From Schmidtea nova (lineage: Eukaryota): a DNA stretch of 64,000 nt. The stretch's first letter is position 1. Every line of letters begins with the position of its first letter. The notes beneath the pieces are model-generated. The model did no database searches, was not told where the DNA came from, and worked only from the letters and a program-made list of their open reading frames with translations. The position numbers and the translations under genes were made by a program. Below are positions 1 to 54,459 of the stretch, piece after piece. The DNA lies in contig CM097883.1 of the NCBI GenBank assembly GCA_044892505.1, positions 147,994,001 through 148,058,000 on the forward strand, written 5' to 3'.

Positions 1-731
1 ACATTTTTATGGTGATGGACATAATTTTATATAATTTTGAAAAAATATTTTGTGTTGAAAATATTTTATGTAAATTAATTTTTTAACTATTTGGAAAATG
101 GATTATATTTTCATTTATATTTTAATATTTTAATTCAATAAATAATAATAATAATAAAATAAATAAATAAATAATACAGGTTGTTTAAATAAATTAAAAA
201 TAAATAAATTACTGTTTGTTTAAATAAATTATATTTCTGACCTACAAGGTCAGAAAAATGAAATAATATCTCAAGGTTAAAAAATAATTTTGAAAACAAT
301 TCTGTTTTGAAAACAACTCTATTTTCAAAAACAATTTCAATCAACTCAAGAGGCAAAATAACAATCATTATTGACAGATTAAGTGCCTTAAAATTTAGTA
401 TATAAACTGACTGATTTTTCAGTTAAATCACCCAAAAATCAAAAGCTTTAAAGAAGAGTTGTAAATTCAATAAATTGATATTACAACATAATTTGAGCAT
501 ACCTATTTACACATCCGAGCTCAGGAAGCTGCAAATATTCACACACACACACACGCATCTATACATATATAAAATATAAGTTGGAATTGATACATATATT
601 TTGTGAGGTAATTGTTTAATTTTTATCAAAATTGTAAATTGTTATAATTTAAATAAAGTTTAGAAAAGAACCAGTCTTTGACTTATTTATTTATATAAGT
701 TCATCAAGTTGAGATTCTTGGAACCTCAACA
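1..731 (+). repeat. 5' LTR of element 1 (partial)
   Basis: Identical by eye to 12009-12741 except one AC unit ((AC)7 vs (AC)8). Ends ...CTCAACA immediately before the PBS. Confidence 0.95.
399..424 (+). promoter_or_regulatory. Candidate LTR core promoter (TATA + TCAGTT initiator-like)
   Basis: TATATAAA at 399-406 and TCAGTT at 419-424; spacing is slightly short. AATAAA at 469-474. Confidence 0.3.
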
Positions 732-733
732 TT

Positions 734-751
734 TGGTGCCGCGAACCGGGA
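734..751 (+). promoter_or_regulatory. Primer-binding site, tRNA-His-like
   Basis: TGGTGCCGCGAACCGGGA lies 2 nt after the LTR end and is complementary to a tRNA 3' end ...TCCCGGTTCGCGGCACCA. The ...CGGCA-CCA acceptor resembles metazoan tRNA-His. Confidence 0.8.
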
Positions 752-992
752 CTAAATTAAATTTAAACAAATTAATTGAATTCGGGGGATAAGAATTGCG
801 ATCAGAGGATTATATTAATTGATATCGGGATTTATTTATATAAAATTATTGGACACGTATTTTTAAACGAAAACTAATCCGGATACTGAGATAATTTTTG
901 ATAACGGACAATAAAGAAATTTTTACGGAATAATAAAAATTGATAATAATCTAGAGATAGCGCATAATCTAAGAAATCGAATAGTATATAGA

Positions 993-3900
993 ATGGCGAA
1001 TAATAATGAAAATAATGATAACCTTCGTAATATTTGGCAAAATAGAGATGCTGATAACGTTAATCGTAATATTTTAATAAAGACATTACCAGTTGAACCG
1101 TATAAAGGGGAACCTGAAAAATTTGATGATTTTTTTGATGAAATTGCACAATACGCAGAGGCTTGTGGGTGGACACAAGATGAGTTAAAAAGACGAATTC
1201 CATTATATTTAAAGGGTTATGCATTGCAGGCATATAATAATTTAGAATGTAAGGGTAGAAATTGGGAAGACTTAGTCAACAATTTAAGAGGTGAAATTGT
1301 AATTGAGCGAGATTTGCAGAAAATTAATGTACAAAAATTTAGAAATAGATACCAAGGTAGCAGAGAAACAATTGGAGAATATGTGTATAATTTGACCGAG
1401 TTAGCTCGAAAAGCTTTTGGAGTAGGAGAACATACTGCGAAATTAATAGAGGATCAATTTTGGAGTGGAATTCAAAAATATTTATACAAGGCATTAATAA
1501 TGGTCGAATATGAAGATTTAAACGAACTGGTTCAGAAAGCTCGAAGAATTGAAGCAATTCAAAGAGATAGATCTAACGCAACAATTGATGCAGTAGAATT
1601 AGAGAGTAAAATAGGGAAATCTGAGGCAACTGATAAAGATGATAATATTCCATGGGAAGAGATGAAGCAGTTATATTTGAATTTTGTTAAAAATAGAAAA
1701 AGGATGGGTCCAAATGCAAGTCGAAATCAATCACCAGAAAATAATAAGAGGTCAAATAGCCCAAGGGGTAGACCGAATAGTCGAAATGACAATTATGTAG
1801 AATTTACCAGAAATGATAAAAATAATTACTTTGAATATAATAAAGATAATGAGAGACGTTTAAACTATAATAGGGATAATTATTTTGATAATAATCGATA
1901 TAATAAAAATAGTCGTTTTAATGATAATCGGAACTATAGGGATAACTTTAATACAAGGAACAATTCTGATCGAAATAGATATGATGATAATAGATATAAT
2001 TTTGGGTCAAATAGAGATAATCTTAGAGGTAGACGACCAAGTCCAAATCAACAAATGTATAATAGAGATAGAAGACCTAGCCCATTTAATAATGATGGAA
2101 GAGACAAAATTAATTTTCGAGGTGAAATAAAATGTTTTAATTGTCAAAAGTATGGTCATATGGCAAAAGCATGTAGAAATATACGAGTTGAATCACCAAA
2201 CAGAGTGCAGTTTAAAAAGGAGCCAGAGGTGAAACAAATAAATGGTATGGAGGTTAAAGAACCCAATAATGAAATCGAGATGCTGAGGGATGAATTACAA
2301 GAATTTAAGACAAAATATGAGAGACTAATTGAAAGGAATAAAATTAATGTATTGATTAATGAGTTTAAAACTTTTACTAATGAAGTTAAGATGGATAATG
2401 ATGAATTAAGAGAACAAAGAGAAAGAGATGAAGAATTACTAGCAGAGATAGATAGACATAATATTTTAAAGCAAGAATTGGACGAATCTTTAAAAAAGTA
2501 CCCTATAGATGATAATGAAGTATTGAGAATATTAAATAAAATTCATGTAGAGGGGATAAATCTTGAGAATCTGAGAAACTTGATACCGCTATTGGCTCGA
2601 AGACAAAAGGAAACAAAGTTGTTTGAATTAGAAATTGAGATAAAAGAGATGTTGAGATGTTATAGTGAATTTGTTCGAAAAAATGAGAAGTTACATGAAC
2701 CCTTGGAAATTACATTAGAAACAAAAGATGGAGATACACCTAAAATCATCATTCATAAACAAGGGGTACATACTTGTACAAAAGTGAAAAAGATAAAACA
2801 AATAGCCAGAGCAAATTGGTACAGCGAAATAGGAATCAATGATGAAATAGTATTATACTTTTACGGAATAAAGATGCAAAGTGAAGATTTTTTAATGGAC
2901 TATGGGATAAATTCAATTGATAACAATATAATAACAGTATCAGTTAAAGTGGGATTAGAATCAATGCTAGATGAATGGATTGCTAATGATAGAAGAATAT
3001 CTAAATCAGATGCGAGTCAGAAAAACGATGTAACATATGAAGCAGAGGATTTTGAAACGATAAAACAAGATGGAGATGAGTCACAAGAGTCAGAAATAAC
3101 AAATAAGTTTACTAGTAAACGGATGGCGGAAAAATTGAGAGAGATTGCAAGCGAAATGTCAACAAATAGTGAAGATACAGATATAATTATAGATTTGATT
3201 AAAACTGTATACCCAAGATTATATTCCAACGCAAACATATCATCTTTAGCAGATAACATAGGGAATCGAATTAAACTAATTACAACAGATATAAAAAACT
3301 TAGTGACTGAAGATGTTAATGAAAAAGCTGTCTTGAAAATATTATTCAGAACAGGAATAAATCAGGATAGAGTAGTAACAGCATTGGCATACCTCATTTA
3401 TAGATCAGAATATGTATTGATAAAAAATGCGGAGAAACAAGTAAATCGAGTAGCAGAACAAATATTAATGAAATTAAAACCCGAAGTGATACCATGGATA
3501 CAGTCTAAAGGTGGGTGGCAAATTTTATACGATAAAACAGTGCCGATAGAGACACCTACCATAGAAATAGATACCCAAGAAAAAGAAGTTGAAAGACGAC
3601 TAAAGAAAATAATAAATAAAACAATGATGAAATCAGGAAAAAGTAATCATGGATTATCAATACCTATTATAATAATGATGATAACAATATTACTTAACTT
3701 AATAAAGGGTAGTACAGGTATGATCGCTTATGATTGTCAGAATCCAAAATGGGGACAAAAATATTCACTATTAGATGTAGAAAATTGCCCAGAAGCTAAT
3801 CCAACCACTTTAAGTACCACAGAACCTAAAATATTTTATGTTTATCAAGAATCTGATTTTATACATACAGAAGCAAAAGAATGTGTAATAAAATATTCTG

Positions 3901-6900
3901 AAGAAGTCTTTGTATGTAATAATATAGCAAGGACGATACTCCGACCGTCATTTACACCAGACACAGTTATAATAACACCACAAGAGTGTGAAAATGCATT
4001 TCAATCAAAGAAGATAAAAATACATGAAATCGAACTAAAAGCACAGGTAGGTGCACGAGTAAAACAACGAGTAGATGTAATTGGATGGTCTTCACAGGGA
4101 GGATATTGTCAAGGTGGGGAATATAGAATATGGGGACACATTATAAAAAACGCCGTTGTAAGACGAGAATACATCGTCGAACTTAGACAGTTTAAAGCAT
4201 CATTTGACAGCATAACACAAAAAATGATGACACACCCTTTCTGTACATCAAAAGAAGTAAGTTGTGACACTGGTGAATCAATAGTAATATATAAAGTTGA
4301 TCCATACGATTGTCCTCTAACAATATTGAAGTCGCTAAAATTTACAGCAATTAAAGGCAAACAGTTTACAAATACAGAATCAACTAAAGTAAGAGATAGA
4401 AAACGAAAGACAATTGTAATCCAAGAAAAAGATACACCCACAATATATATGACAGAATCTTCAGGAGAAGCATTGAGATTTCTTAGTAAAGGGGAAATTA
4501 TAAAATGTGGAAAGTCAATAATACAAACCAATTATAAAGGTCTATATTTGAGTAAAGATGAAATAAAAGATGCGAAAATAAAAGTAAACAAATACGATAT
4601 TAAACTTTCATCATATTTCAATAATAAGATTGACTATTTTTATCACCATCAATTAATGCAATTAGATAGGGTATATCAAGAAACAATAATAAATGATTGT
4701 AAGCTTAACCGAGAAATTTTAAGATCGAAAATGGCATTAGCAATTACAAATCCGGATCTAATGGCCCCAATGCTCTTTTCAGAAAGAGGCGCATTTGCTA
4801 GAGTTGTTGGCGAAGTAATCCAAACATTTCAATGTAAACCAGTCAGTGTATCATTAGCTACGAACAAACAATGTACAAACGAATTACCAGTTATTTATAA
4901 GGGAGAGAAAGTCTACTTACAACCCATAACAAGGATACTAACAGATAAAAACTACATACCTAAGAGAATAGATAAATGTACAAACTTATTAGACCCTCTA
5001 TATAAATTAGATGACGAAACATGGATAACGATGTCAGATAAGAAGGTAGCAATAAGACCACTAAATCTAGAAATGACAGAACTAGATAAGAAACTAGAAT
5101 TCATAGAAGTAAATGATTTTGATAACAATGGACTTTATACAAAGGAAGACATAGAAAGTGCAAGAAAACATTTATTATTTCCGAACGAAAAGGAGAAAGT
5201 ACTAACAATAATAGCAAGCAAAGTTATCGAGAATAGCCACGATGGACAATACAATTTCGACATCTTGTTATCAAAAGAACACTTCAAGAAGGTAGTTTAT
5301 CGAGTTCTATATAGTATATGGGGATACTTTGCAATCCTAGGAAATACCTTCTCAACCACACTCGGCATCTATTATTCTATTGCACTACTAAAAATGATAT
5401 GTTCATCACTAGTATCATTTAGACAGCTGAGACAAGTATTTGGCAATTCATACAAAATGCTAGCTTGTTTATGTCCATTTATTGCAAAATATTTAATAAC
5501 TGCAAAACATGATAAAGATATCAAAAGAATAATAAGAAAGACAACAGAAGAAAGACTAATAGATGACAATACCAATCAAGAAAATAATCATACGGAAGAA
5601 TTCGATCACACGGAACCAACGCAAGGAGGACCATATATTATACACATGGATCAATTAAGAAATCTAGGCAATGAGATCGAAACTAATATACCTCTAAAAG
5701 ATTATAACACCCACACGCTGATAAGAAAACCAAAGAAAGTATACGGATGTTATGGACTAGAAGAAAGAGAAGAAGCAAACGACATGAGGCCAAGAACCCA
5801 AATAACGATAAACAATCAAATACTAAATGCGCTAGTAGATACCGGTGCCGCTGCATCATTGATAGAAGAAGATCTACTAACAGAAAAACAACTTCAAAAT
5901 ATCACATCAACAAATGATGAATTATTGTCACTTTCTTCACACACTATACCTATTAAAGGAAACGTAAAACTTACAGTATACTTTGAAAATCAGACCATAG
6001 ATCATGTGTTCCGAGTAGCAGATATATGTCAAAGGAAATGTATTCTAGGCATAGATATTCTGAAAAAATTAAAGAATCATGTAATTGATTTATCAGATAA
6101 CAAAATAAAAAGAAAGATAAACAAAAGTTATAAAAAGCCGATAGAAGTAAGCGCGATAGAAGAATTTGAACTAGAATATGAAAGTGATAATATTATACCT
6201 ATAAAAGTTAATATTCAAAGTGATGACATATTTATTTTCGAACCCAACACAACGATTACAGAAAATAGAAATATAATGCTAACCGACGAATGTGTAATAC
6301 CCAAAAAGGGTATAATCCCAATTCGAATTGCCAATTTCGAAAACAGAAAAATAAAAATTCATAAAGGTACAAAATTAGGTCAATTATCAAAATATAAATA
6401 TGATATTGGCGAGATAAGTATAGAAAGTAACAACCTTGAAGATACAATTAAACCGAATGACATTAAATTTTACGAAAAGACTACAATAAATAACGATTAT
6501 CTGGACAAGGTTCAACAAAAATTATTGCAGATATTAATTGATAAATATAATGATGTTTTTGCAAAGCACGAATTTGATCTAGGAGACACGGATATCATTA
6601 AACATGTAATTGATACAGGGAACGCTAGACCAATAAAACAACGACCCTATGTAACACCATATAAACTTCGAGAAGAAATAAAGAGACAAATAAATGAACT
6701 AAAAGGGGCAGGAGTAATTAGACAAAGTTTCTCACAGTGGGCTTCACCAATAGTACCAGTTAGAAAGAAAGATGGCGAAATTAGAATGTGTATCGATTAT
6801 AGAAAATTAAACGAAGTAACAACAAAAGACTCATATCCATTTCCAAAGGCACAAGAACAATACGATAAACTAAGAGGCGCTAAATATTTTACGGTCATAG

Positions 6901-6956
6901 ATGCTAATAAAGGATATATGCAAATCCAAATAGAAGAAGGAGATATTGAAAAATAA
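993..6956 (+). CDS. Polyprotein, part 1: Gag (capsid-like, CCHC knuckle) - UBL - Bcl-2-like - signal peptide - class III-type glycoprotein - TM - aspartic protease - dUTPase-like spacer - N-half of RT
   Basis: CFNCQKYGHMAKAC knuckle; LREIASEM, LFRTGINQDRVV and PWIQSKGGW motifs; hydrophobic LSIPIIIMMITILLNLIKGSTG followed by MIAYDC; LVDTGA protease motif; RT motifs WASPIVPVRKKDGEIRMCIDYRKLN. Ends at an in-frame TAA. Confidence 0.93.
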   Translation: MANNNENNDNLRNIWQNRDADNVNRNILIKTLPVEPYKGEPEKFDDFFDEIAQYAEACGWTQDELKRRIPLYLKGYALQAYNNLECKGRNWEDLVNNLRGEIVIERDLQKINVQKFRNRYQGSRETIGEYVYNLTELARKAFGVGEHTAKLIEDQFWSGIQKYLYKALIMVEYEDLNELVQKARRIEAIQRDRSNATIDAVELESKIGKSEATDKDDNIPWEEMKQLYLNFVKNRKRMGPNASRNQSPENNKRSNSPRGRPNSRNDNYVEFTRNDKNNYFEYNKDNERRLNYNRDNYFDNNRYNKNSRFNDNRNYRDNFNTRNNSDRNRYDDNRYNFGSNRDNLRGRRPSPNQQMYNRDRRPSPFNNDGRDKINFRGEIKCFNCQKYGHMAKACRNIRVESPNRVQFKKEPEVKQINGMEVKEPNNEIEMLRDELQEFKTKYERLIERNKINVLINEFKTFTNEVKMDNDELREQRERDEELLAEIDRHNILKQELDESLKKYPIDDNEVLRILNKIHVEGINLENLRNLIPLLARRQKETKLFELEIEIKEMLRCYSEFVRKNEKLHEPLEITLETKDGDTPKIIIHKQGVHTCTKVKKIKQIARANWYSEIGINDEIVLYFYGIKMQSEDFLMDYGINSIDNNIITVSVKVGLESMLDEWIANDRRISKSDASQKNDVTYEAEDFETIKQDGDESQESEITNKFTSKRMAEKLREIASEMSTNSEDTDIIIDLIKTVYPRLYSNANISSLADNIGNRIKLITTDIKNLVTEDVNEKAVLKILFRTGINQDRVVTALAYLIYRSEYVLIKNAEKQVNRVAEQILMKLKPEVIPWIQSKGGWQILYDKTVPIETPTIEIDTQEKEVERRLKKIINKTMMKSGKSNHGLSIPIIIMMITILLNLIKGSTGMIAYDCQNPKWGQKYSLLDVENCPEANPTTLSTTEPKIFYVYQESDFIHTEAKECVIKYSEEVFVCNNIARTILRPSFTPDTVIITPQECENAFQSKKIKIHEIELKAQVGARVKQRVDVIGWSSQGGYCQGGEYRIWGHIIKNAVVRREYIVELRQFKASFDSITQKMMTHPFCTSKEVSCDTGESIVIYKVDPYDCPLTILKSLKFTAIKGKQFTNTESTKVRDRKRKTIVIQEKDTPTIYMTESSGEALRFLSKGEIIKCGKSIIQTNYKGLYLSKDEIKDAKIKVNKYDIKLSSYFNNKIDYFYHHQLMQLDRVYQETIINDCKLNREILRSKMALAITNPDLMAPMLFSERGAFARVVGEVIQTFQCKPVSVSLATNKQCTNELPVIYKGEKVYLQPITRILTDKNYIPKRIDKCTNLLDPLYKLDDETWITMSDKKVAIRPLNLEMTELDKKLEFIEVNDFDNNGLYTKEDIESARKHLLFPNEKEKVLTIIASKVIENSHDGQYNFDILLSKEHFKKVVYRVLYSIWGYFAILGNTFSTTLGIYYSIALLKMICSSLVSFRQLRQVFGNSYKMLACLCPFIAKYLITAKHDKDIKRIIRKTTEERLIDDNTNQENNHTEEFDHTEPTQGGPYIIHMDQLRNLGNEIETNIPLKDYNTHTLIRKPKKVYGCYGLEEREEANDMRPRTQITINNQILNALVDTGAAASLIEEDLLTEKQLQNITSTNDELLSLSSHTIPIKGNVKLTVYFENQTIDHVFRVADICQRKCILGIDILKKLKNHVIDLSDNKIKRKINKSYKKPIEVSAIEEFELEYESDNIIPIKVNIQSDDIFIFEPNTTITENRNIMLTDECVIPKKGIIPIRIANFENRKIKIHKGTKLGQLSKYKYDIGEISIESNNLEDTIKPNDIKFYEKTTINNDYLDKVQQKLLQILIDKYNDVFAKHEFDLGDTDIIKHVIDTGNARPIKQRPYVTPYKLREEIKRQINELKGAGVIRQSFSQWASPIVPVRKKDGEIRMCIDYRKLNEVTTKDSYPFPKAQEQYDKLRGAKYFTVIDANKGYMQIQIEEGDIEK

Positions 6957-9869
6957 GCATTTGTGATAGAAAATGAGCTATACGAATTCTTAAGACTACC
7001 ATTCGGAATGGTAAATGCACCAGCAACATTTCAAAGGCTAATGAATACGATATTGATAGATGTACAACATTGCGCAGTATATATGGATGATGTACTGATA
7101 GCATCAAAAACATTCGAGGAACATCTAGAAGATATAAAAAATGTATTAGAAAGATTTAGAAAATCAAAAATTAAAATTAAACCTACAAAATGTAAATGGG
7201 CAGAACCTTCAGCCTTATATTTAGGACATATTGTCTCAGTAGAAGGCATAATCCCAAACCCAGACAAAATAAAAACAGTACAACAATTTCCAATACCAAA
7301 ATCAGTTAAGGAAGTACAAGGATTTTTAGGTTTAACAGGGTATTATCGAAAATTTATCGAAAATTATGCTAAAATAGCAGCTCCATTAATTGAATTAACA
7401 AAAGGAGTAAAAACAAAGGAAGATGGGAGAAAAACACAGATAGTCCAGAAACTAAATAAAATTAACGAAAAACCACAAAAGTTGTGGACTCAAAGACAAC
7501 AAAATTCCTTTGAGCAACTGAAAGAAAAATTAGTGACCGCACCAATACTTAGATACCCTGATTTTACTAAACAATTTATCATTATGACAGATGCCAGCGG
7601 GAAAGCCGTAGGAGCAGTCTTAGGCCAAGAAGAGGAAAAAGGAAAAGACTACGTCATCGCATATGCAAGCAAAACGTTAAAGAATGCTGAAATCAGATAT
7701 TCGACGATAGAGAAAGAATGTTATGCTATTATGTTTGCGTTAAAACAGTTCAAGCAATATATATACGGATCAGAAGTAATAATAAGAACCGATCACAAAC
7801 CATTAGAAGGGTTATGGAAGCATAAAGATACTTCAAGTAGATTATTAAAATGGGCAATGAAGATTCAAGATATGCAAATTAAAATTATCTATAAACCTGG
7901 CAGAATAAATAAGAATGCAGATGCATTATCTCGTATACCAGAATTAAGTGCTCTAGAAGTATTCGCAATAGTTGCAGAAAACCCTATACATATATATGAA
8001 GAACAAATGAACGATCCTGATTTATCAAAAATAAGAGATGAAATTAAAAAAGGAAAAAACCATAAATATAAAATCAATAAAAATTTACTGATAATAGAAA
8101 GCACGACAGGGAATAAACTCATTATAGTCCCTCAAAAATTAAGACAAATACTTTTATTACAATACCATGATGGAGCACTAGGAGGTCACTTATCAGCCAG
8201 AAAAACAGAAAATAGACTATTACAAAAATATTACTGGGAAAATTTAAAAAATGATGTTAAAGCGTGGTGTAAAGCATGTACTATATGTGCTACTAGAAGA
8301 AATACAGGTACTAAAACAAGAGCTAAAACAAGAGCTAAAACAAGCACTCCTATGAAACTATGTGCCATGGACTTTTTATGCAAATTACCCACTACAATAA
8401 ACGGTAATAAACACATATTGGTTTTTAGTGATTATTTCACAAAGTGGGCAGAAGCTTTTCCAACAAAAGATGAAACAGCGGAAACAGTAGCTAAGCTATT
8501 AACGGAAAAAATTATATTTAAGTTAGGCACACCAAGAAAATTACTCACCGATAAAGGAAGAAATTTTATGAGCGAAACAATTTCTAGAATAGCTAATATT
8601 TTTAATATACAAAAAATAAATACAACAGCATACCACCCTCAAACAGATGGATTAGTAGAAAGATTTAATGGTACATTATTGAATAGACTATCAGTTTTTG
8701 TAAATAAAAATCAAAACGACTGGGATGAATATATAAACCAATGTACTTATATCCACAACATCACACCAAATGAAACAACTGGATATTCACCATACTATTT
8801 GATGTACTTAAGGGAACCAATAATGCCAATTGACACGGTCTTTGAACCAAAAATATCACAATATTTAGACACCCCAGATTATGTTACGCTAATGCAAGAA
8901 AGATTACAAGAAGTATATAAAATAACTAATCTAAAAGTTAAATTTCGTCAAGAACAATACAAGGATGAATACGATAAAACGGCTAAACCTCATAATTTTA
9001 AAATAGGCGACAAAATTAGATTAATGTCACCACAAGTAGGCAAGGGTAAGACAACTAAACTAGCACGACCATTTAAAGGCCCATACGAAGTCATGAAAGT
9101 GATCAATGAAAATTTACATATCCAAAAAAATAAGAACGAGGATCCAACTGTTGTGCACGTCAATAGATGCAAACTTGCAGAAGACGAACTACCAATAATA
9201 AAACCACATAAATACAACTTAAGATCACAACCACAAAGTATATTAATGATATCAATAATCACCCTCATTATATTTAATACAGCTAATGCAAATATAATTA
9301 ATAACAAGGATATAAAAATAATAAGAGAACATGATAAAATCACAATTATTAATCTAAATAGGAACCCAATGATTCAATCATACTTAAAATTTATTAATAA
9401 TTCAAAAGTTATACAAAAGACGAAAAATAACGAAAAGAAATATATCGACAGATACACAAATTTGAAACCCGACACTAATTATTATTTCTGTACAGAAACA
9501 CCAATGTGGCATTTGAAAAAGACCCAATGTGAAATAATAAAAACAAAATCTCAGAAAATATACAAAAGGAAAAAGCAGAGAAGATCCCAAACGGAAAAAC
9601 CTAGAATATTAAATAGAATACCATTAAATAAACCTGCAATAACAATAAATAACTGGGAAGAATTTCAAAATCTGTATCACCCCCAACCAAAACCTTTATA
9701 TAAAACATGGCCAATGTATGTAATAATTTTTAGCATAATATTATTAATAACTATAACAATGTGGATAGGAACGCAAACTTATAGAAAATATAAGTGGAAG
9801 AGGCAGCGTTATCGGAGTTCTCTCATTAGATATATACCTGGAAGGTGCACACTATCTACCCTTTGTTAA
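6957..9869 (+). CDS. Polyprotein, part 2 (same frame): C-half of RT, RNase H, integrase, then signal peptide - FN3-like - TM extension
   Basis: EK*AFV...LPFGMVNAPATFQ and YMDD; RNase H MTDASG / EKEC / TDHKPL; integrase H-H-C-C (GHLS...CTIC), AMDF, TDKG, GLVERFN and FKGPYEV; hydrophobic segments at 9240-9290 and 9714-9770. Confidence 0.93.
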   Translation, partial: AFVIENELYEFLRLPFGMVNAPATFQRLMNTILIDVQHCAVYMDDVLIASKTFEEHLEDIKNVLERFRKSKIKIKPTKCKWAEPSALYLGHIVSVEGIIPNPDKIKTVQQFPIPKSVKEVQGFLGLTGYYRKFIENYAKIAAPLIELTKGVKTKEDGRKTQIVQKLNKINEKPQKLWTQRQQNSFEQLKEKLVTAPILRYPDFTKQFIIMTDASGKAVGAVLGQEEEKGKDYVIAYASKTLKNAEIRYSTIEKECYAIMFALKQFKQYIYGSEVIIRTDHKPLEGLWKHKDTSSRLLKWAMKIQDMQIKIIYKPGRINKNADALSRIPELSALEVFAIVAENPIHIYEEQMNDPDLSKIRDEIKKGKNHKYKINKNLLIIESTTGNKLIIVPQKLRQILLLQYHDGALGGHLSARKTENRLLQKYYWENLKNDVKAWCKACTICATRRNTGTKTRAKTRAKTSTPMKLCAMDFLCKLPTTINGNKHILVFSDYFTKWAEAFPTKDETAETVAKLLTEKIIFKLGTPRKLLTDKGRNFMSETISRIANIFNIQKINTTAYHPQTDGLVERFNGTLLNRLSVFVNKNQNDWDEYINQCTYIHNITPNETTGYSPYYLMYLREPIMPIDTVFEPKISQYLDTPDYVTLMQERLQEVYKITNLKVKFRQEQYKDEYDKTAKPHNFKIGDKIRLMSPQVGKGKTTKLARPFKGPYEVMKVINENLHIQKNKNEDPTVVHVNRCKLAEDELPIIKPHKYNLRSQPQSILMISIITLIIFNTANANIINNKDIKIIREHDKITIINLNRNPMIQSYLKFINNSKVIQKTKNNEKKYIDRYTNLKPDTNYYFCTETPMWHLKKTQCEIIKTKSQKIYKRKKQRRSQTEKPRILNRIPLNKPAITINNWEEFQNLYHPQPKPLYKTWPMYVIIFSIILLITITMWIGTQTYRKYKWKRQRYRSSLIRYIPGRCTLSTLC

Positions 9870-10049
9870 AATAAAAAACCCAATCATAAATTGTAAAATA
9901 GCCCATCCAATCATATTTCAGAAATCATTTTACCCAATAAAATTATATCAAAATCATCTATATATGTGTCCAATAATTTATAAAATTTACCCATATCTGA
10001 CAATATATTATATTGCATCTAAGGAATAGATCAACCAACAATCCAACCA

Positions 10050-11663
10050 ATGAACCAATCAGCCTCAAACAATCAGTCAAGCTCAACAATATCCACATAC
10101 ACATACACATGCACCACATATAAACACCACACAGCATTTTATAAGACCATTCAAAATAGCATTCACACAGATGAGGAAGAAATTACACCAAGGAAATTCC
10201 CGAATCAGGTATGCATACCAAATGTATTAAAAGTAGATATAGAAGAAAGAGAAATGATCATCGTAAAATTCAACTCATCAAGAAGATTTAAATTAAAAGA
10301 AATCATAGGTAGTTTTGAAGAAAGTCAAAATGCAGATAGAGATGCAAGAGAAGGCATCAAAATTCCCCACAGAATAGTAATTCATACTACCAAAACAACA
10401 ATATCACTAAAACACAACGATAAAGTATTAGCGATTGCAAACAATACATCAATAATATTTAAAACCCTTAGAGAACGTAAATTGTCTACAGAATTCAACA
10501 ATATCATTATACAACTACATAATATGCCATGTGTAATTGCAATTGAAATATTATATGTACCCACAATAGAAAATCCCTTTAAAAAATTAGAACCCATTTG
10601 GTCAGACATTAGAATGGATAACATATTCGTAGAAAAGAAAATACCTTTCACGAAGCAAACACTAACACCCGAAGAAAGACAAGGAAAAATAACTTTTGTA
10701 GACATAAAATCGGTACAAGATTTTAATAAAGAGTACAGACCAGTAGATGTCTGTATTAGAAACTACAAAGGAGACACACTATTTCAAAGTAAAATTACCC
10801 CAAGAGAAAAAATACAAAGATTCTTTCCAGAAATCACAATGGCTACCAGAGAAAATAGTATAGGCAATATGGACGAATTCATAGCATTGTTAGAAATCAA
10901 GAAACACCTCTATGGAAAAATAATAGTAGGTTTCGACATTATGAAAAAACTGAAAAGTGTCACAATAGACCTGGATGATATTATGGGAGTAAGAGAACTC
11001 TCGAACACCGAATATATGAAAACATTCGTCAATAATGTCCCGGAAGACAGGATTAAATTATCAAATTTAGCATTTCAGATTATTATGAATACAAATGATC
11101 TGAAGAGAAACAAAAAACTTAATGATATATTATTAAAACCAGAACCTTTTAATGTTGGTGAAACTTGCTTAATAGTTCGCTTACTATATTTACTCACAGA
11201 AACCGAATGGGAAAAAGCTGTTGACAATGGAATGAAAACAATAACAAAGAAAACAATTAAAGAAAATTGTTCCACATCGGACGGAAATAAGAAACCAACA
11301 TTTGAAATCATAACAATAGATGAAGATAACTCTAATTTGGAAGTAGAAGGAATTGAGCCAATGGAAGAAGATGAATTAGGACCAGAACCTCAAATCACAA
11401 TAGAAGAACCCATGCCAGAAATCACTGTCACATATAATAGCAATGTAAAGAAAACAACAGTGATTGTAGATGGGAATGAAATACACATATATTATGTTGA
11501 AAAAGGTTATGAGGACATAACCTTGACGCCCCAGGGAGTAGTGTTAGATACAGGGAAGATAGTCGAAAATTTTGAGATAGATGAAAATTATACAATAGGG
11601 GCAAATAAGTACAGACTAAATGTGTATGTGGATAACAACAATCAGAACCCAGGCCAACAATGA
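10050..11663 (+). CDS. Accessory ORF of element 1 (537 aa) with a REX4/ISG20-like DEDDh exonuclease fold and degenerate catalytic residues
   Basis: Intact long ORF between pol and the 3' LTR. FVDIKSV...VCIRNYKGDTLFQSKITPREKIQRFFPEITMAT...HLYGKIIVGFDIMKKLKSV...VRELS...LSNLAFQII...FNVGETCLIVRLLY follows the REX4-type pattern. Confidence 0.65.
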   Translation: MNQSASNNQSSSTISTYTYTCTTYKHHTAFYKTIQNSIHTDEEEITPRKFPNQVCIPNVLKVDIEEREMIIVKFNSSRRFKLKEIIGSFEESQNADRDAREGIKIPHRIVIHTTKTTISLKHNDKVLAIANNTSIIFKTLRERKLSTEFNNIIIQLHNMPCVIAIEILYVPTIENPFKKLEPIWSDIRMDNIFVEKKIPFTKQTLTPEERQGKITFVDIKSVQDFNKEYRPVDVCIRNYKGDTLFQSKITPREKIQRFFPEITMATRENSIGNMDEFIALLEIKKHLYGKIIVGFDIMKKLKSVTIDLDDIMGVRELSNTEYMKTFVNNVPEDRIKLSNLAFQIIMNTNDLKRNKKLNDILLKPEPFNVGETCLIVRLLYLLTETEWEKAVDNGMKTITKKTIKENCSTSDGNKKPTFEIITIDEDNSNLEVEGIEPMEEDELGPEPQITIEEPMPEITVTYNSNVKKTTVIVDGNEIHIYYVEKGYEDITLTPQGVVLDTGKIVENFEIDENYTIGANKYRLNVYVDNNNQNPGQQ

Positions 11664-12741
11664 TAATAATTTGACTTGATGAACTACATTTGATTGTGAT
11701 AACATTTTCTTTTATTTTATTGGTTTTGATAATTGATGATATGAATAATTGATTTTATTTGTTGATGTATTTTTTTAAAATAGATAGACAATGGAAAATA
11801 TCAAATTCAATGACATTATGATTTTAGTGATTTTATATGATAATATTTTATGTGATGACTATCTGGCAATTTTTATTTTTATGGGATAATTTTATTTTGT
11901 TTCTGTTAATAAAATATTGTTGAAAATTAATTTTTGTAATGACAATTTATCATCATGACAATTTATAATTTGACAATTTATCATTTGTGATATTGCGAAC
12001 ATTTATTGACATTTTTATGGTGATGGACATAATTTTATATAATTTTGAAAAAATATTTTGTGTTGAAAATATTTTATGTAAATTAATTTTTTAACTATTT
12101 GGAAAATGGATTATATTTTCATTTATATTTTAATATTTTAATTCAATAAATAATAATAATAATAAAATAAATAAATAAATAATACAGGTTGTTTAAATAA
12201 ATTAAAAATAAATAAATTACTGTTTGTTTAAATAAATTATATTTCTGACCTACAAGGTCAGAAAAATGAAATAATATCTCAAGGTTAAAAAATAATTTTG
12301 AAAACAATTCTGTTTTGAAAACAACTCTATTTTCAAAAACAATTTCAATCAACTCAAGAGGCAAAATAACAATCATTATTGACAGATTAAGTGCCTTAAA
12401 ATTTAGTATATAAACTGACTGATTTTTCAGTTAAATCACCCAAAAATCAAAAGCTTTAAAGAAGAGTTGTAAATTCAATAAATTGATATTACAACATAAT
12501 TTGAGCATACCTATTTACACATCCGAGCTCAGGAAGCTGCAAATATTCACACACACACACACACGCATCTATACATATATAAAATATAAGTTGGAATTGA
12601 TACATATATTTTGTGAGGTAATTGTTTAATTTTTATCAAAATTGTAAATTGTTATAATTTAAATAAAGTTTAGAAAAGAACCAGTCTTTGACTTATTTAT
12701 TTATATAAGTTCATCAAGTTGAGATTCTTGGAACCTCAACA
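11542..12741 (+). repeat. 3' LTR of element 1 (start inferred)
   Basis: 12009-12741 matches the 5' LTR. The start is inferred from purine run AGGGAGTAG (11533-11541) followed by TGTT, which complements the AACA end; it cannot be confirmed because the 5' LTR start lies outside the window. Confidence 0.75.
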
Positions 12742-19945: not shown

Positions 19946-22150
19946 CAATAATAAAAAAGCAATAATTTTGTTTGGGATTTATTTTTTCTATTTTCGATTG
20001 ATATCTTGATTCGACATCACATTTGATAAAAAAAAGATTTTTAGTTGATTTGACATTTTGTTGCAATGGTCCACGATTACGTAGGTAATTAATATTGAAA
20101 TATTTTTAATGAAATTATTGTACTTATACCAATTTTTGTACTTAATAGTTGTAAATTTATTAATTAAAATTATTTTTTAATAAAATATTATTTTATCAAT
20201 TGTCTTTTGTTTTTTAAATATATTTTGCTACAAAATCTGCCAATGGATATGTATGATTTAAATTTGATACCATTAAGTAAAGTTGAATTCATCTTTTTAA
20301 ATTAAATTAAACAAAGTTAAATAAAATATTAAAATTTATGTTAAAGAATGGTGCAAATATTATGCAGTTTTCGTTGTCCGTGCAAATATCGAAATTAATT
20401 ATTTACACTTTGTACAAGCAATTTTAATCAAGACTGAATTAACTTTTTTTGTTAGTGTGAATCTCAATTTTTCCAGATATTTTGCATAGTTTTGCAACTT
20501 TTTAAATTTCTCAGTTTTCATTTATTTTCTTATATTTATTATATTGTTGAGTTTATTATTAAGTCGGCACAAATCTCTGACTTCTCGCGCTCCTTTTACA
20601 ATAAAAGTCACCCAACTCAATAACATTTATTAAATTTCAATACACAATTACAATGTCGTAAACAATTATTGATAATCTGCACTACTGAGCGACTGGAGTA
20701 GGTCTTCCAATGGGAGATCCCCCTTTCTGGTACGCAATAATTGATTTGAAGTAAAACTATCTAACCTTGTGAATAACTCGTAAAACTATTTTCGACCACC
20801 TGACAATTTCTCGTATATTCCCTGAGTTTACAGAGTAACTATTGATTGGGCACTAATTGAATTTCATTTCGTCAATCCTGAATCTTTGGGATTTTTCTTA
20901 AATTATTTTATTTACCCCTCTGGTTCTGCTTTTCGCTCGGGTTTCTTGATAATCAATTTGTCTGGAGTAATTACGTTAGTTCTTGTTTACTCGGTTTTCT
21001 TTATCTCTGCGTTTCCCTACATGAATTTTTCTAAGATAATAAAATTTATTTTTTGACAACTCGTGTTTCTCATTAGCTTGGGTTTTCTTTAAGGTAATTA
21101 ATTTTTTTTCATAATATTTCTTTTTGGGGACTCCCTTTTGATTTTATATCATCATATTTGAATTTGTCTCATTATTTGACATCCGCCTATATCAGCCCAC
21201 CGCAAAATCTTTATTTTTATTTTTCAAAATTTTAATTGATTTCTGTACTTTAATTAATTACTTTAAATTTTTCATGTTTTTTTATTTGCATATGGTTTTT
21301 GTGCTCTTTATTTTATCTTAAGATTAATTTCAATTAGGGTTGTCAAGTGGTCAACACAAAAAAAGAGAACATTTTAAAAAAAAAATTTTTAAAATCAAAT
21401 TTTATACATAAAGATATTAAGGAACATAAAATTGCACTTATAATTCAAATTTGTGCTTTAAAAATATAAATTAAATTTAATTTAATCATCTTCATCATCA
21501 TTTTGATCACTTTTTTCAATGTATTTATCTACATTACTAACTTTGTTCAAAAAAATTTCATTTTCTTTTATTTCTTTATAAAATTCCAAACATGAAATAT
21601 TTTTATAATTATAAACTACGCTCAAAATACCTCGGACAGTGGAAATTTTTAGCTTATTTCTTTCTTTAGTCCACTGGCCGCTAATCATGGAAAATATTCT
21701 TTCAACATTAGCATTTTGACCAGGTATTGCGAAAAAAAATTGACATATTTTTAAGAGTTCTGAATAGGCTTGTCAACAGGTCTCTTTTAAAGAGAACATG
21801 TTCTCTTTTTTAGCACATTTTATTTGTCCTCTATCTTTTTCTATAAATATTCAAATTGTTCTCTTTTTTCAATTTCGCTGATTTTTAATTAATTTAAGTT
21901 GAAATTTAAAAAGAAACTCGGTATAAAAATTCAAAAATTTGAAAAAAAGCAGGCTATGCTATTGCTGTCCTGTCAATATTTATTGAATTTAAAATTAAAG
22001 ATGAAATAATTTGTGTGTATTAACGATTTTGATAAGAAATCATTATTATTATAATTTGTTGTGTTAAATAAATAAAATAAGCAAGTGAAAAGTAATTATT
22101 AATATTATATTTTTTTGTGTTAAATAAACAAGTAAGTATGTAATTTATTA

Positions 22151-23057
22151 TTGTTAATTAGAGTCTTATATTTTATATTCTTGGATTTTTCTATTTTAGC
22201 TCCAAATATGAGTAAACGAAAATGTTTATTTACTGAAGAACTGCAAGCTAAATTTGTATGTTTTAAATCAACACCAAATTCAAAATCCGAGGCAATATGC
22301 ACTGTTTGTAATACTACAGTTTCGGTTGCAAACAAAGGCAAATACGATTTGGAACAACATATTGCGTCAAAAAAGCATACAAATACTATTCGTATAGGAG
22401 AGAGTTCCAATTCCATATGCAATTTTTTTACAAAAAAATTTTCATCTCTGGATCACAAAGTATCAGCTGTCGAAGGAGCTTTAGCATTCCACACTTTAAA
22501 GCACCATTATAGTTATAACTCCACCGTTTGTACAAACAAATTACTGTCAAACATGTTTGATGATTCGGAAGTAGCTAAGCGGATTTCATCTGGAAAGACA
22601 AAAACGAGATGTATCGCAAATAATGTCATCGCTCCATATTGCATTGAAAATATAATGCAATCATTGTCCAAAATACCATTTATATCAGTTTCAACAGATG
22701 GAAGTAATCATGGGGCAATTAAAATGTTCCCAGTTCTTATTCAATTTTTTGACAAAAATAATGGAATAATGACAAAAATGATTGATTTATATTCTTTGCC
22801 AAACGAAACAGCAGAGACAATAAGTGATAATTTGAACACTTGTTTAGAAAAATACAATATTGTCGAAAAATGTGTTGCTTTTTCTGCTGACAACTGTAAC
22901 ACTAATTTTGGAGGTTTGAAAAGATCAGAGAAAAACAATGTTTACAGCCTTTTAAAATTGAAATTTGGAAAAGATTTAATAGGTGTTGGTTGTCCTGCTC
23001 ATATTGTTCACAATTCCGCACAGCATGGATTTGATTCGATGACAGTAGATTTAGAAT
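22151..23057 (+). pseudogene. 5'-half copy of the hAT transposase, truncated at the junction with the next copy
   Basis: Near-identical to the N-half of the 23205-25166 ORF (STDGS vs STDES, KFGKD vs KFEKD); ends at MTVDLE, where a TIR begins. Confidence 0.9.
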
Positions 23058-23204
23058 TAGGGTTGTCAAGTGGTCAACACAAAAAAAGAGAACATTTTAA
23101 AAAAAAAATTTTTAAAATCAAATTTTATACATAAAGATATTAAGGAACATAAAATTGCACTTATAATTCAAATTTGTGCTTTAAAAATATAAATTAAATT
23201 TAAT

Positions 23205-25166
23205 TTAATCATCTTCATCATCATTTTGATCACTTTTTTCAATGTATTTATCTACATTACTAACTTTGTTCAAAAAAATTTCATTTTCTTTTATTTCTTT
23301 ATAAAATTCCAAACATGAAATATTTTTATAATTATAAACTACGCTCAAAATACCTCGGACAGTGGAAATTTTTAGCTTATTTCTTTCTTTAGTCCACTGG
23401 CCGCTAATCATGGAAAATATTCTTTCAACATTAGCATTTTGACCAGGTATTGCGAAAAAAAATTGACATATTTTTAAGAGTTCTGAATGAAACTCAACAG
23501 CATTTGTTTTAAAATATTCTGTCCATTTGAGACAGGTAATCAATTTTCTAAAATTTTCTATATTAATGTTTTTTTCTACAAATACCTTTAAATTATAAAA
23601 TTGATCAAAACATTTTACATCATCAACAACGATGTTTTTAGATGCAAGCAATACTATCGTATTCTCAATTTCTTCCCATGTTGGAACTCTATCTAATTTC
23701 ATCCAAGTAACGCTTTCAAAATTGGATAGTTGACTAGTCCATAACTTTAAATATTCATAAGACATCTTATAGCAATTCATGCAATTTAAATTGAATTTAT
23801 CTATTTCATTTTCCAATCCATTTTTTATATTTTCAGACAAAATAGACTTTACTTTGATTGGAAAAAATGATTCCTCATATCTATGATGCAATGTATTTGC
23901 TAATGAATTTGTTGTAGCCATTACTTCTAATACAGAATTTTGTTCAGATTCTATTTCTAATATTTTTTCATGAAAAATATGCATTAATGATTCAGCAAAT
24001 TCTAAATAAGCTTTACTAAAAGCATCTTCAAAAAATAATTTTAAAATACGAGGAGAGTTATCAATTGATAAAAAATAAGCTTTTAAAGCAGGATAAACTT
24101 CCAAGACTCTTTTCACAGCGGGATAAAGTGATAACCAGCGCGTTTTTGAATGTTTTAATAACGCTTTATACTGAATGTCTACAAATTCGCAAAAACTTTT
24201 CAAAGATTCTGTCCTTATTGTATAAATTGAAAAAAAATTATAGAGTTTTAAGATTATAGATTCTAAATCTACTGTCATCGAATCAAATCCATGCTGTGCG
24301 GAATTGTGAACAATATGAGCAGGACAACCAACACCTATTAAATCTTTTTCAAATTTCAATTTTAAAAGGCTGTAAACATTGTTTTTCTCTGATCTTTTCA
24401 AACCTCCAAAATTAGTGTTACAGTTGTCAGCAGAAAAAGCAACACATTTTTCGACAATATTGTATTTTTCTAAACAAGTGTTCAAATTATCACTTATTGT
24501 CTCTGCTGTTTCGTTTGGCAAAGAATATAAATCAATCATTTTTGTCATTATTCCATTATTTTTGTCAAAAAATTGAATAAGAACTGGGAACATTTTAATT
24601 GCCCCATGATTACTTTCATCTGTTGAAACTGATATAAATGGTATTTTGGACAATGATTGCATTATATTTTCAATGCAATATGGAGCGATGACATTATTTG
24701 CGATACATCTCGTTTTTGTCTTTCCAGATGAAATCCGCTTAGCTACTTCCGAATCATCAAACATGTTTGACAGTAATTTGTTTGTACAAACGGTGGAGTT
24801 ATAACTATAATGGTGCTTTAAAGTGTGGAATGCTAAAGCTCCTTCGACAGCTGATACTTTGTGATCCAGAGATGAAAATTTTTTTGTAAAAAAATTGCAT
24901 ATGGAATTGGAACTCTCTCCTATACGAATAGTATTTGTATGCTTTTTTGACGCAATATGTTGTTCCAAATCGTATTTGCCTTTGTTTGCAACCGAAACTG
25001 TAGTATTACAAACAGTGCATATTGCCTCGGATTTTGAATTTGGTGTTGATTTAAAACATACAAATTTAGCTTGCAGTTCTTCAGTAAATAAACATTTTCG
25101 TTTACTCATATTTGGAGCTAAAATAGAAAAATCCAAGAATATAAAATATAAGACTCTAATTAACAA
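23205..25166 (-). CDS. Intact hAT transposase (probable start MSKRK at ~25109)
   Basis: Zn finger CTVC...HIASKKH; catalytic STDES, SADN and NVERIFS; CxxH motif (CPAH); uninterrupted 653-codon ORF between TIRs. Confidence 0.92.
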   Translation of the reverse strand: MLIRVLYFIFLDFSILAPNMSKRKCLFTEELQAKFVCFKSTPNSKSEAICTVCNTTVSVANKGKYDLEQHIASKKHTNTIRIGESSNSICNFFTKKFSSLDHKVSAVEGALAFHTLKHHYSYNSTVCTNKLLSNMFDDSEVAKRISSGKTKTRCIANNVIAPYCIENIMQSLSKIPFISVSTDESNHGAIKMFPVLIQFFDKNNGIMTKMIDLYSLPNETAETISDNLNTCLEKYNIVEKCVAFSADNCNTNFGGLKRSEKNNVYSLLKLKFEKDLIGVGCPAHIVHNSAQHGFDSMTVDLESIILKLYNFFSIYTIRTESLKSFCEFVDIQYKALLKHSKTRWLSLYPAVKRVLEVYPALKAYFLSIDNSPRILKLFFEDAFSKAYLEFAESLMHIFHEKILEIESEQNSVLEVMATTNSLANTLHHRYEESFFPIKVKSILSENIKNGLENEIDKFNLNCMNCYKMSYEYLKLWTSQLSNFESVTWMKLDRVPTWEEIENTIVLLASKNIVVDDVKCFDQFYNLKVFVEKNINIENFRKLITCLKWTEYFKTNAVEFHSELLKICQFFFAIPGQNANVERIFSMISGQWTKERNKLKISTVRGILSVVYNYKNISCLEFYKEIKENEIFLNKVSNVDKYIEKSDQNDDEDD

Positions 25167-25619
25167 TAATAAATTACATACTTACTTGTTTATTTAACAC
25201 AACAAATTATAATAATAATGATTTCTTATCAAAATCGTTAATACACACAAATTATTTCATCTTTAATTTTAAATTCAATAAATATTGACAGGACAGCAAT
25301 AGCATAGCCTGCTTTTTTTCAAATTTTTGAATTTTTATACCGAGTTTCTTTTTAAATTTCAACTTAAATTAATTAAAAATCAGCGAAATTGAAAAAAGAG
25401 AACAATTTGAATATTTATAAAAAAAGATAGAGGACAAATAAAATGTGCTAAAAAAGAGAACATGTTCTCTTTAAAAGTGACCGTTTGACAAGCCTAATTT
25501 CAATGTCAAATTTATAAGCGTCATTATAGCTTGGTCGTCCGCCATGGATACTTATAATTTTTGATATTCTTTTTTATAATACAAATTAGAATGTATTAAT
25601 TTTATTTAATTTAATTTGG

Positions 25620-48528: not shown

Positions 48529-48598
48529 AAAACTCCGGGGGATAGAACAAAGTTGAGCTAAGAAAGTGTTGAATTTTGAATAGGGGTAATATAATTAA

Positions 48599-50121: not shown

Positions 50122-52030
50122 CGGTATGAGAATATTATAGAGGACACTGAGGTAACAGCATTGATGCCACCAGAGCAAGAGTGGAGATTCAAAATAAACC
50201 CCAAATTGAGAGTAGAACCGTTAATACAAAAATTAACTGAACGGTTCAGAGGACCGACATGAGAAGTTTAATTATGTAGTGCTCCGCTTCAAAGATCGGA
50301 GACGCTAATAAAAAGTGGTATTTTGCCCGGAATACAAAATATTGTGAACGTAAAAATAGCTAAAGTAGAAGTCCCGGTAGTGGACGCTAATAACATATTC
50401 ATTATCACAGAGATGGATATGGAACAGCTGCTGGAAACAAGGGCAATTGCCATGAAACTGGGACGTGAAATAATGCAAAGTCCCCGAAATCAAAAGAATA
50501 TTAGACAAATGCTAGACTGGATGATTACATTACGTATACCAACAGAGACATTATATGATATTGCATATTTGATCCATCCACTAATGAAGGAAGTAACACG
50601 ATATCAGCCACAGTTAAAGATATTGATGACCAAACATGGACAAGCAATTCGGCATCAGCCCAACAAGCAAGGTCCGATAAATATAGATATCAGGGTGCCC
50701 GCCAAGAATCCCCAGGTACACAGACATTCAGTCAATAATTTATTAACAAAAACAAAGCATGACCTCGCATGCAGAAACATTTGGTAGGATCTTCCCGCAA
50801 GCGAGCGTCCCCTACCTCTGGAAAAGGAAAAAGCTGGTATGGTATTTTATGGAGTTGTCCGTATTTGCTTGGTCAATGAGGAGATCATATAGATCGGTTA
50901 GTTCATTGTCTGTTTTTATCATTCCATCGAATTTTTTTAATTCTTGATTGAGAGCATCTATATTATCTTTTTGGCAGTGGATTTTCATTATCTGATGTGA
51001 TTTTTCAAATATTTCTTTGAGTGCTTCTTTTTTCTCACAAATAATGCTTATTTGCTTTATAATCTCTTTCGTAGTGATGTTAGCTTTTTGAGGTTTTATT
51101 TAAATGTTGCTGTTTTCATTTGATTGATTTGTGAAGGATTCAGAGGGGATCTGATTTTTATTTTCTTTAGGAGTACTGATTGTTGGTATTTCTGTGATGA
51201 TTTTGAATTTGTCTGAATCTTCGTAGGTTTCCATTTGATCATGAGGAATTATTTGTTCTGTATCTGGATTTTCTATAACCCTTTCTGCAAGGAGGGTTAT
51301 AGTCTTTTGGAATTTGTAAGATTTAGCTATTCCAATGATATTTCTATGAATGTAGTATTGGAAAAAATTGGCAATTCTAAAAGTTGAGAAATAAAATAGA
51401 AGAAGTTGTAGACTATCTGTTCCTAATAATGATTCAGGGAAGTCAAGTCGATGATGACGAGTACTTAGTAGATGCGGGATGCCTACCACACGAAACTAAT
51501 ATAGCCACAATAATTCCTTTAACACCACCTAGAGAGCAGTGGTCAGTATTGAGATTGCCAGGCACAGCAGAGTAGGATCAACCGAACGTAGTGACAGAAC
51601 CGAGAAAAATGCCTGTAGACCTGGATGAGGAGGGAAATCATTAGGGAATTAAAGCCTAGTCTACATATTGAACCAGAACCGAGTATAAACATAGAAAATG
51701 TTACTCAAGCTATTAAAGGAATCATGCACAAGATCCCTAAAACAGTTGCTGAAAAAGAAATATCAGATACGGTGGAAAGATTCTTTCATGAGGGACTAAC
51801 CAGAGGAAAAGTCGTTATAATACTTGTCATGTTCATCAAAAGATTACTTGCTAATGTAGGTAGCAATCGAAAACGACTTGACCCAGATTTGGAACATATA
51901 ATACCAATGATAGAATGGTATTTTGGGGCCTTGGATGACAGAAAACGAGTTCTGGCAGAAACCCATCAACAAACAACCTCGATACATATTAAATGATAAC
52001 TCACTGAACGTCGAAAATCTCGGATCCGAA

Positions 52031-53880: not shown

Positions 53881-54459
53881 TTAGACATCACAAAGGGGAA
53901 ATCAAAAAGATGAAAATAAAAGAGTTAATAAAGCATGAGGTAGTACGCGAAATCATAGATAATTACAATCATCGGGACGATGATAATTCCGACGGGGGAG
54001 GTAACATAGGGGTACTTTCTACTCAAAATAATATTCATAACAAAACACACACTAAAATACCGAAACGTAAACGAACGCAAAACAGATACCTACCTCCTTA
54101 TGATTCAGAATTCAATTTGTTACCCAAAATTGAGCAGATTAACGAAAATATAGACAATACATCAGTATCCACATTATTCGAGGATAGACAAGATAGTTAT
54201 AGGGCCATAAACAAAAGTAGATTTCCTACAACATTTACAACAATTAGAAGCCCACCTAAATACGTAGAGTTACCCAACATACCAAATATATCAATGAATC
54301 TAAATCCAACATACCCATTTAATGAACTTGAACAACTAAGAGACAGATTTGACACAGAACCTACTAATAGTGAAGCTGAGAGAAGAGAAGCTCAAAATTT
54401 CAGTGTAAATTTACTGGAACTGACAACTGTGTTAATGATATCTAACAAAGGATCTACCA

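Follow-up and report, generated by a model that had tools for sequence, protein, structure and literature searches.

A Bcl-2-fold domain within the gag-env-pol polyprotein of a compact Burro-related Ty3/gypsy element of Schmidtea nova

The genome of the planarian Schmidtea nova contains a Burro-related Ty3/gypsy LTR element whose gag-env-pol polyprotein almost certainly includes a Bcl-2-fold domain, located between a ubiquitin-like domain and the signal sequence of the envelope protein. The element is 13.2 kb long, starts 466 bases before the window (the stretch of 64,000 nucleotides analysed here, to which all positions refer) and ends at 12741 (Table 1). That a Bcl-2-derived domain lies within a retroelement polyprotein had been predicted from the letters alone, and this is borne out by Pfam, phmmer, profile-profile comparison, a shuffle control and the predicted fold. 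The gene order itself is already known from the giant Burro elements and is not new in kind; new here are the occurrence of the domain in ten families, its placement on a single branch, its purifying selection combined with fast divergence, and the remodelling of BH1. The Bcl-2 domain is not an oddity of giant elements: compact families with many young copies bear it, apparently from one origin and under selection.

The two LTRs align over 1202 columns with no mismatches and one 2-base gap, and since they are nearly identical and a 4-base target duplication, TCTG, is found on both flanks of the element, the insertion is judged to be very young. A single frame (915-6956) encodes Gag with its CCHC knuckle, the Bcl-2 domain, the fusion glycoprotein, the protease and the start of the reverse transcriptase (RT). 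Pol of the window copy is interrupted within RT by an in-frame stop (6954-6956), past which the frame resumes with RT, RNase H and integrase, and its end looks as if a small membrane protein, itself a prediction, had been fused behind the integrase. In Gag, Pfam detects zf-CCHC (E 1.9e-4) and, weakly, PNMA (E 0.092). The ubiquitin-like domain (UBL) is matched by PF11976 in three of six members (best E 0.0022; E 0.055 in the window copy), and its profile matches FAT10 and ISG15 at E about 1e-3; these matches are individually low-scoring and mutually consistent, and point weakly to a ubiquitin/SUMO-like domain upstream of the Bcl-2 domain. ORF2 may encode an RNase T/DEDDh-type exonuclease, which is a lead only: 27 of its 30 atlas matches are PF00929 (best score 0.92), and its Pfam scan gave no match under E 0.04. 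Frames of 500-720 aa are also present downstream of pol in families B-E. One guessed pattern for the primer tRNA was searched and gave no match. Contigs from two sequencing runs, of a kind uninformative on expression or splicing, cover the element, and no RNA run was listed as containing it.

Table 1. Positions of the features of the element and of a related remnant within the window
Feature	Position	Strand	Basis or remark
5' LTR, part within the window	1..731	+	about 1.2 kb whole, TG...CA; LTR-LTR alignment
Primer-binding site, starts TGG	734..751	+	shared unchanged by families A, B and C
Gag: capsid-like region, Arg/Asn-rich stretch, CCHC knuckle (2133-2174)	993..2200	+	Pfam
Ubiquitin/SUMO-like domain (UBL), weakly matched	2697..2951	+	PF11976 and profile matches
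Extra amphipathic helix before the fold	3105..3158	+	model H6-22, pLDDT about 68; BH3-like pattern without Asp
Bcl-2-fold domain	3162..3542	+	Pfam, phmmer, profiles, hhalign, AlphaFold, Foldseek, VIA
alpha1/BH4, DIIIDLIKTVY	3180-3212	+	structural alignment of the model
alpha2	from 3243	+	model
BH1/alpha5	3342-3404	+	model, sequence
BH2, IPWIQSKGGW (W..GGW)	3489-3518	+	aligns with Bcl-xL BH2
Internal env signal sequence, predicted remaining tail anchor	3648..3719	+	hydrophobic stretch 3648-3704, hydropathy 2.12
Env, class III-type fusion glycoprotein, membrane segment near 5358-5414	3720..5420	+	PF24664, E 2.3e-88 (Monjiviricetes-type)
Pol: protease (DTGA 5838), RT, RNase H, integrase	5760..9200	+	ORFs, Pfam
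Second signal-like stretch and membrane segment after integrase	9240..9770	+	sequence features
ORF2, 546 aa, RNase T/DEDDh-exonuclease-like	10023..11663	+	end overlaps 3' LTR
3' LTR	11542..12741	+	LTR-LTR alignment
Decayed Bcl-2-like remnant of a second, older element (family F)	51619..51996	+	open relatives align with the domain

The identity of the domain is carried first by its sequence. The suggested Pfam comparison gave a match of the window copy to PF00452 with E 2.6e-6, but its 28.4 bits fall below the Pfam cut-off of 31.4, which is exceeded by a family-A copy (L041, 34.7) and by family-C copies (L040, 34.9). In the PDB, phmmer returns Bcl-xL as the top match (E 3.5e-4, 69 residues ungapped), and a profile built from 15 element domains finds Bcl-xL at E 1.8e-8. 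An HHpred-type comparison, which had also been proposed, supports the assignment, as the profile-profile alignment by hhalign against 15 cellular proteins reaches 97.6% and E 4e-12. A cellular Bcl-2 profile gives the domain 47.0 bits, against 13.8 for the best of 2000 shuffles and 5.2 for the reversed sequence. All of these methods reach alpha4-alpha8 only. Longer relatives of the domain were sought in two weak searches, which returned none among 624 candidates and P0007 itself alone among 230.

The fold is a prediction from an alignment of 24 element-only sequences, free of cellular Bcl-2 proteins, for which AlphaFold gave a helical bundle with the hydrophobic alpha5 at its centre (pLDDT 83.8, pTM 0.76); the single-sequence run was uninformative (pLDDT 40.6). 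Throughout the PDB matches listed by Foldseek, the Bcl-2 family is recovered (best E 1.1e-4), and the feared outcome, a fold without the bundle, was not seen. VIA aligned 126 residues to Bak with Z 12.9 and rmsd 3.1, values that are typical of its matches to Bak, Bcl-xL and A1 (Z 12-13, rmsd about 3, 120-130 residues), and placed model residues 25-151 on Bcl-xL 1-198. Among viral structures, the top matches of the model are mostly viral Bcl-2 proteins, with A179L at Z 12.1. The tool itself warns that helical bundles can commonly reach Z values close to 13, so the sequence evidence is weighed equally with the fold.

The motifs quoted in the original prediction do lie in one frame and at the place given for them (LESMLDEWIANDR at 2955-2993, MAEKLREIASEM at 3123-3158, LFRTGINQDRVVTALAY at 3342-3392, and IPWIQSKGGW as in Table 1). 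Their labels fared differently: BH1 and BH2 hold in the alignments with Bcl-xL, whereas BH3 and BH4 were misplaced, judging from the structural alignment of the predicted model. In 48 of the 50 VIA matches listed, the alignment starts at model residue 21-28, on Bcl-xL residue 1-7, and alpha1 of Bcl-xL pairs with model residues 27-40. Therefore, alpha1/BH4 is assigned to DIIIDLIKTVY, and MAEKLREIASEM, formerly labelled BH3, to an extra helix preceding the fold and not to alpha2. The formerly labelled BH4, LESMLDEWIANDR, sits in a linker whose identity to that of sister family B is 21%. A MAFFT register that places YPRLYSN on the Bok-like YPELYSN, making DIIIDLIKTV alpha2, was set aside, since the model aligns this helix with alpha1; the choice of alpha1 over alpha2 for DIIIDLIKTV thus depends on prediction. 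A Leu-x-x-Ile/Leu helix is found at the position of the extra helix throughout families A-F, and this helix could occupy the domain's own groove.

The groove motifs of the domain are strongly altered. The change of BH1 from NWGR to NQDR, already pointed out, is present in the window copy, which has neither the canonical NWGR nor its Gly plus Arg. Across the 18 element rows of the alignment, the BH1 Trp is missing from all, the Gly is gone from 13 and kept in five, and the position of the NWGR Arg holds a basic residue in 14 and Val or Leu in the other four (families G-J). Among 35 family-A copies, the second position of BH1 is Q in 13, R in 21 and W in one, and the third is D in 35/35. The single NWDR copy (L041) was considered as a relic of the Trp and rejected, being one in 35 and one transition away from the commoner CGG, and because NQD, NQE or NRD stands here in six copies at greater distance. 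The modelled alpha2, SLADNIGNRI, does not have the Leu-x3-Gly-Asp signature of BH3, its Gly is replaced by Tyr or Thr in families B-F, and the stretch from alpha2 to alpha5 has about 12 residues fewer than that of Bcl-xL. Gly-to-acid changes in BH1 abolish the function of Bcl-xL and Bcl-2. With the BH1 Trp lost from every element row and the Gly from most, classical BH3 binding of the NWGR type is doubtful for the element domain, which is better filed as Bcl-2-fold than as a canonical pro-survival member.

At the junction with Env, small residues occupy positions -3 and -1 before the Env start in families A-J and in three metagenome proteins. Together with the hydrophobic stretch, they lead to the prediction of a signal-peptidase cut just before 3720, and the suggestion that the signal sequence behind the domain could act as a tail anchor is supported, as a prediction, by the same stretch. 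On the other side of the domain, an RGRP motif, which we take to be AT-hook-like, is found in families C-F (L064, L081, L083, L092) and in P0002 and P0005, and is missing from A and B; in families G, H and J (L142-L145), two ubiquitin-like repeats precede the Bcl-2 domain.

A genome search returned at least 105 matches at 65-100% identity (family A) and at least 45 at 43-46%; among the 105 family-A matches listed, 15 have a single open frame of 2992 aa. Ten families (A-J) carry the Bcl-2 domain before the env signal, with open frames of about 2,990-3,550 aa and with F decayed. All ten were retrieved by queries that contained Bcl-2, so the apparent retention of the domain is biased upward, and an env-led search returned families G and H only. 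Searched with a profile, 1.84 billion proteins yielded 25 matches. In the metagenome proteins P0002, P0003 and P0007, the domain precedes env, and in P0005 it follows Gag and UBL; the short P0001 and P0010 cluster with element proteins in the tree, and the remaining 19 of the 25 look like cellular Bcl-2.

In a tree of 43 rows and 67 core columns, 18/18 element rows fall on one branch (support 99/94), as do 14/14 in a tree of 133 columns (98/91); both trees are unrooted and built on a short alignment, L042 being omitted from the 67-column tree because of intron read-through and the near-copies L050, L056 and L059 from both. The shared branch suggests that Bcl-2 was captured once, long ago, by the element lineage, and neither tree resolves a donor gene. 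At least 14 Bcl-2-type loci (L031-L039, L042, L050, L052, L056, L059) are present in the host genome, many with a non-canonical BH1. They include Bak-like and Bcl-2-like genes, so labelled by motif, and two of the Bak-like genes are separated by about 130 kb. Directly behind the BH2 Trp codon, a GT donor is present in six of the 14 loci. The element domain is intronless, a difference that fits capture from spliced RNA and supports, by inference, the proposed origin in a cellular gene.

Selection on the domain was assessed in 35 family-A copies, a non-random sample of top-scoring and hand-picked sequences, in which a variant is called shared when it occurs in at least two copies. The shared variants of the Bcl-2 domain comprise 17 nonsynonymous and 14 synonymous changes (pN/pS 0.32, binomial p 0.002 versus neutrality) and the singletons 24 and 8 (0.8), a contrast that is not significant (p 0.12); the shared variants of Env comprise 14 and 44 (0.08). 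Between families A and B, the core of the Bcl-2 domain is 47% identical, compared with 76% for UBL, 89% for Env, 90% for Gag and 98% for RT (domain versus Env, Fisher p 1e-22), and the domain with its upstream linker has the lowest conservation in the first frame. Its best-kept parts are BH1-alpha5 (11/17 identical) and BH2 (10/17). By these comparisons, the Bcl-2 domain is under purifying selection yet changes much faster than the structural proteins. Since dS is saturated beyond families A-B, positive selection is not claimed, and the fast divergence is as expected of a host-facing protein but would fit weak constraint as well. That the domain is a vestigial passenger, retained merely through its in-frame position between Gag and Env, is very unlikely: it is indeed, with the linker, the least conserved stretch of the frame and below the Pfam cut-off in the window copy, but its shared variants are constrained, and its fold, length and BH2 Trp persist across families that are 14-47% identical while the adjoining linker varies freely.

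Viral Bcl-2 mimics are familiar from large DNA viruses (EBV BHRF1, adenovirus E1B-19K, ASFV A179L and those of poxviruses). With the Bcl-2 proteins of dsDNA viruses (ASFV A179L, BHRF1/BALF1, ORFV125, E1B-19K), the element domain shares the predicted fold, a short alpha1-alpha2 loop, an altered BH1 and, putatively, a membrane anchor; it differs in lying within a retroelement polyprotein, in having the env signal as its predicted anchor and in the change of the BH1 Gly to Asp, and it is known here from sequence and model. The original prediction knew of none from LTR retroelements, which is contradicted by a BCL2-like motif in Burro-2, -3 and -4, located after a PF11976 SUMO-like domain and before an in-frame env, for which experiments were called for (PMC6431247, section 7) and which is credited there to Grohme et al. 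2018. Burro-2/-3/-4/GYPSM1 of Schmidtea mediterranea have the same Gag with CCHC, PF11976 SUMO-like domain, BCL2-like motif, env, protease and RT in one frame, and their env, like that of the window element, is related to mononegavirus fusion proteins (PMC6431247). Burro elements, however, exceed 30 kb and encode 4,873-5,140 aa, compared with 13.2 kb and about 2,990 aa here. The window element is without the MATH, BIR or ankyrin cargo of the Burro type, for which its Pfam scan gave no matches, and has a downstream exonuclease-like ORF. By comparison with the published description, the window element is classed as a compact Burro relative and not as Burro proper. The literature search returned no structural or functional study of the Burro BCL2 motif, the primary Burro papers being covered second-hand, and the accessible portions of PMC11410931 and PMC8532177 add nothing further on the domain.

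Six env-bearing elements of Schmidtea are catalogued in the consulted part of PMC13524379. The window element shares with the GAG-ENV-POL HSV/gB-type errantiviruses described there a class III-type env between gag and pol, LTRs, a primer site and several young copies. One of them, Smed_errantivirus_3, has the same gene order, and 49 of its first 67 env residues are identical, by eye, to those of the window element; it may carry the Bcl-2 domain too, an extrapolation from env. In a word search, "bcl" is absent from the main text and seven supplements of that study.

At even chances, the domain would be an ER-anchored, viral-Bcl-2-like pro-survival modulator of the host. Probably derived from a single capture of a cellular gene, it would be freed from Gag by the element's own protease. 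The predicted signal-peptidase cut would release Env into the ER lumen, with the signal sequence left behind to act as tail anchor and the Bcl-2 domain on the cytosolic face. There, it may bind host death or autophagy proteins through its remodelled groove, not through the classical NWGR contact, and the host cell would probably be kept alive during element replication. Homology, fold, the fixed position before env, purifying selection and fast divergence are consistent with this role, as are the basic residue kept at the Arg position in 14/18 rows and the Bak-like and Bcl-2-like genes of the host. A precedent is found in Burro1, a planarian gypsy element that likewise captured a cell-death regulator: its B-IAP, a RING/BIR caspase inhibitor, has a reported function in shielding stem cells from apoptosis, whereas the role of the Bcl-2 fold discussed here is predicted (PMC13465017, accessible portion). 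Against the pro-survival role stand the BH1 losses, including Val or Leu at the Arg position, the alpha2 without the conserved Gly-Asp and the shortened segment from alpha2 to alpha5. By comparison, ORFV125 retains the conserved Gly and Arg in its SPGR, and other poxviral proteins use a different Arg (PMC7719400, accessible portion). Furthermore, an ER signal anchor would not put the protein on mitochondria, the divergence is compatible with weak constraint, retention across ten families is inflated by the queries, and the donor gene is resolved in neither tree.

Some poxviral Bcl-2-fold proteins block non-apoptotic host defence through a surface outside the groove. The element domain could similarly be a scaffold against innate signalling, ER calcium signals or autophagy, which we consider unlikely. 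The remodelled groove motifs, the predicted ER anchor and the fast divergence would suit it, as would the UBL and putative exonuclease of the same element, and autophagy roles are described for BHRF1, BALF1 and KsBcl-2 (PMC11209288, a treatment of viral Bcl-2 in dsDNA viruses, accessible portion). Against it, conservation within the domain is highest in BH1-alpha5 and BH2, although both also form the core.

By analogy with the Env leader peptide of foamy viruses, the fold might instead have been repurposed structurally, as a leader, anchored in the membrane, by which Gag and Env are held together at the ER for budding, an improbable reading. In its favour, the domain has a fixed place in 10/10 families examined, with Gag/UBL before it and the env signal after it, and has kept its fold although the BH1 and BH3 signatures are gone; its supposed partners, however, are 89-90% identical when family A is compared with family B, with the domain at 47%, and the consulted part of PMC13524379 describes other GAG-ENV-POL elements without Bcl-2, where the region is perhaps unannotated.

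Returning to the pro-survival role, its broadest form is tentative and on balance doubtful: a whole clade of enveloped flatworm retroelements would descend from one old Bcl-2 capture, make an obligatory ER-anchored product at the Gag-Env junction, have varied its groove from one family to the next during an arms race against the death proteins of the host, and so be a case of a reverse-transcribing virus with a functional viral Bcl-2. If true, this would be a second transposon-borne survival factor besides the Burro1 IAP and could aid the hardiness of planarian stem cells. The domain is small and foldable, and with the Burro1 precedent it offers an easy test of element action at the Bak/Bax step; it also lets one ask whether a Bcl-2 protein without the BH1 Gly binds BH3.

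Several other features were observed. An ORF of about 400 aa that contains BIR is present in very many copies in the genome (L114-L125; 150/150 matches listed scored). Two BIR-bearing sites, covering 80 kb, gave no Bcl-2 or env match when the giant Burro polyprotein was sought there, and both adjoin a 1045-aa frame with a protease-like match. Within the window, the second element (about 48573-57243, +) has gag, UBL, the Bcl-2-like remnant, env and pol with many stops and frameshifts, and its env resembles, by eye, that of Smed_errantivirus_4. At about 50850-51500, the base composition is reversed and a minus-strand open frame (51100-51495) is found, possibly an inverted insert in this element. 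Finally, a 658-aa ORF at 23205-25181 (-) looks like a hAT-type transposase and has a partial duplicate at 22136-23134 (-).
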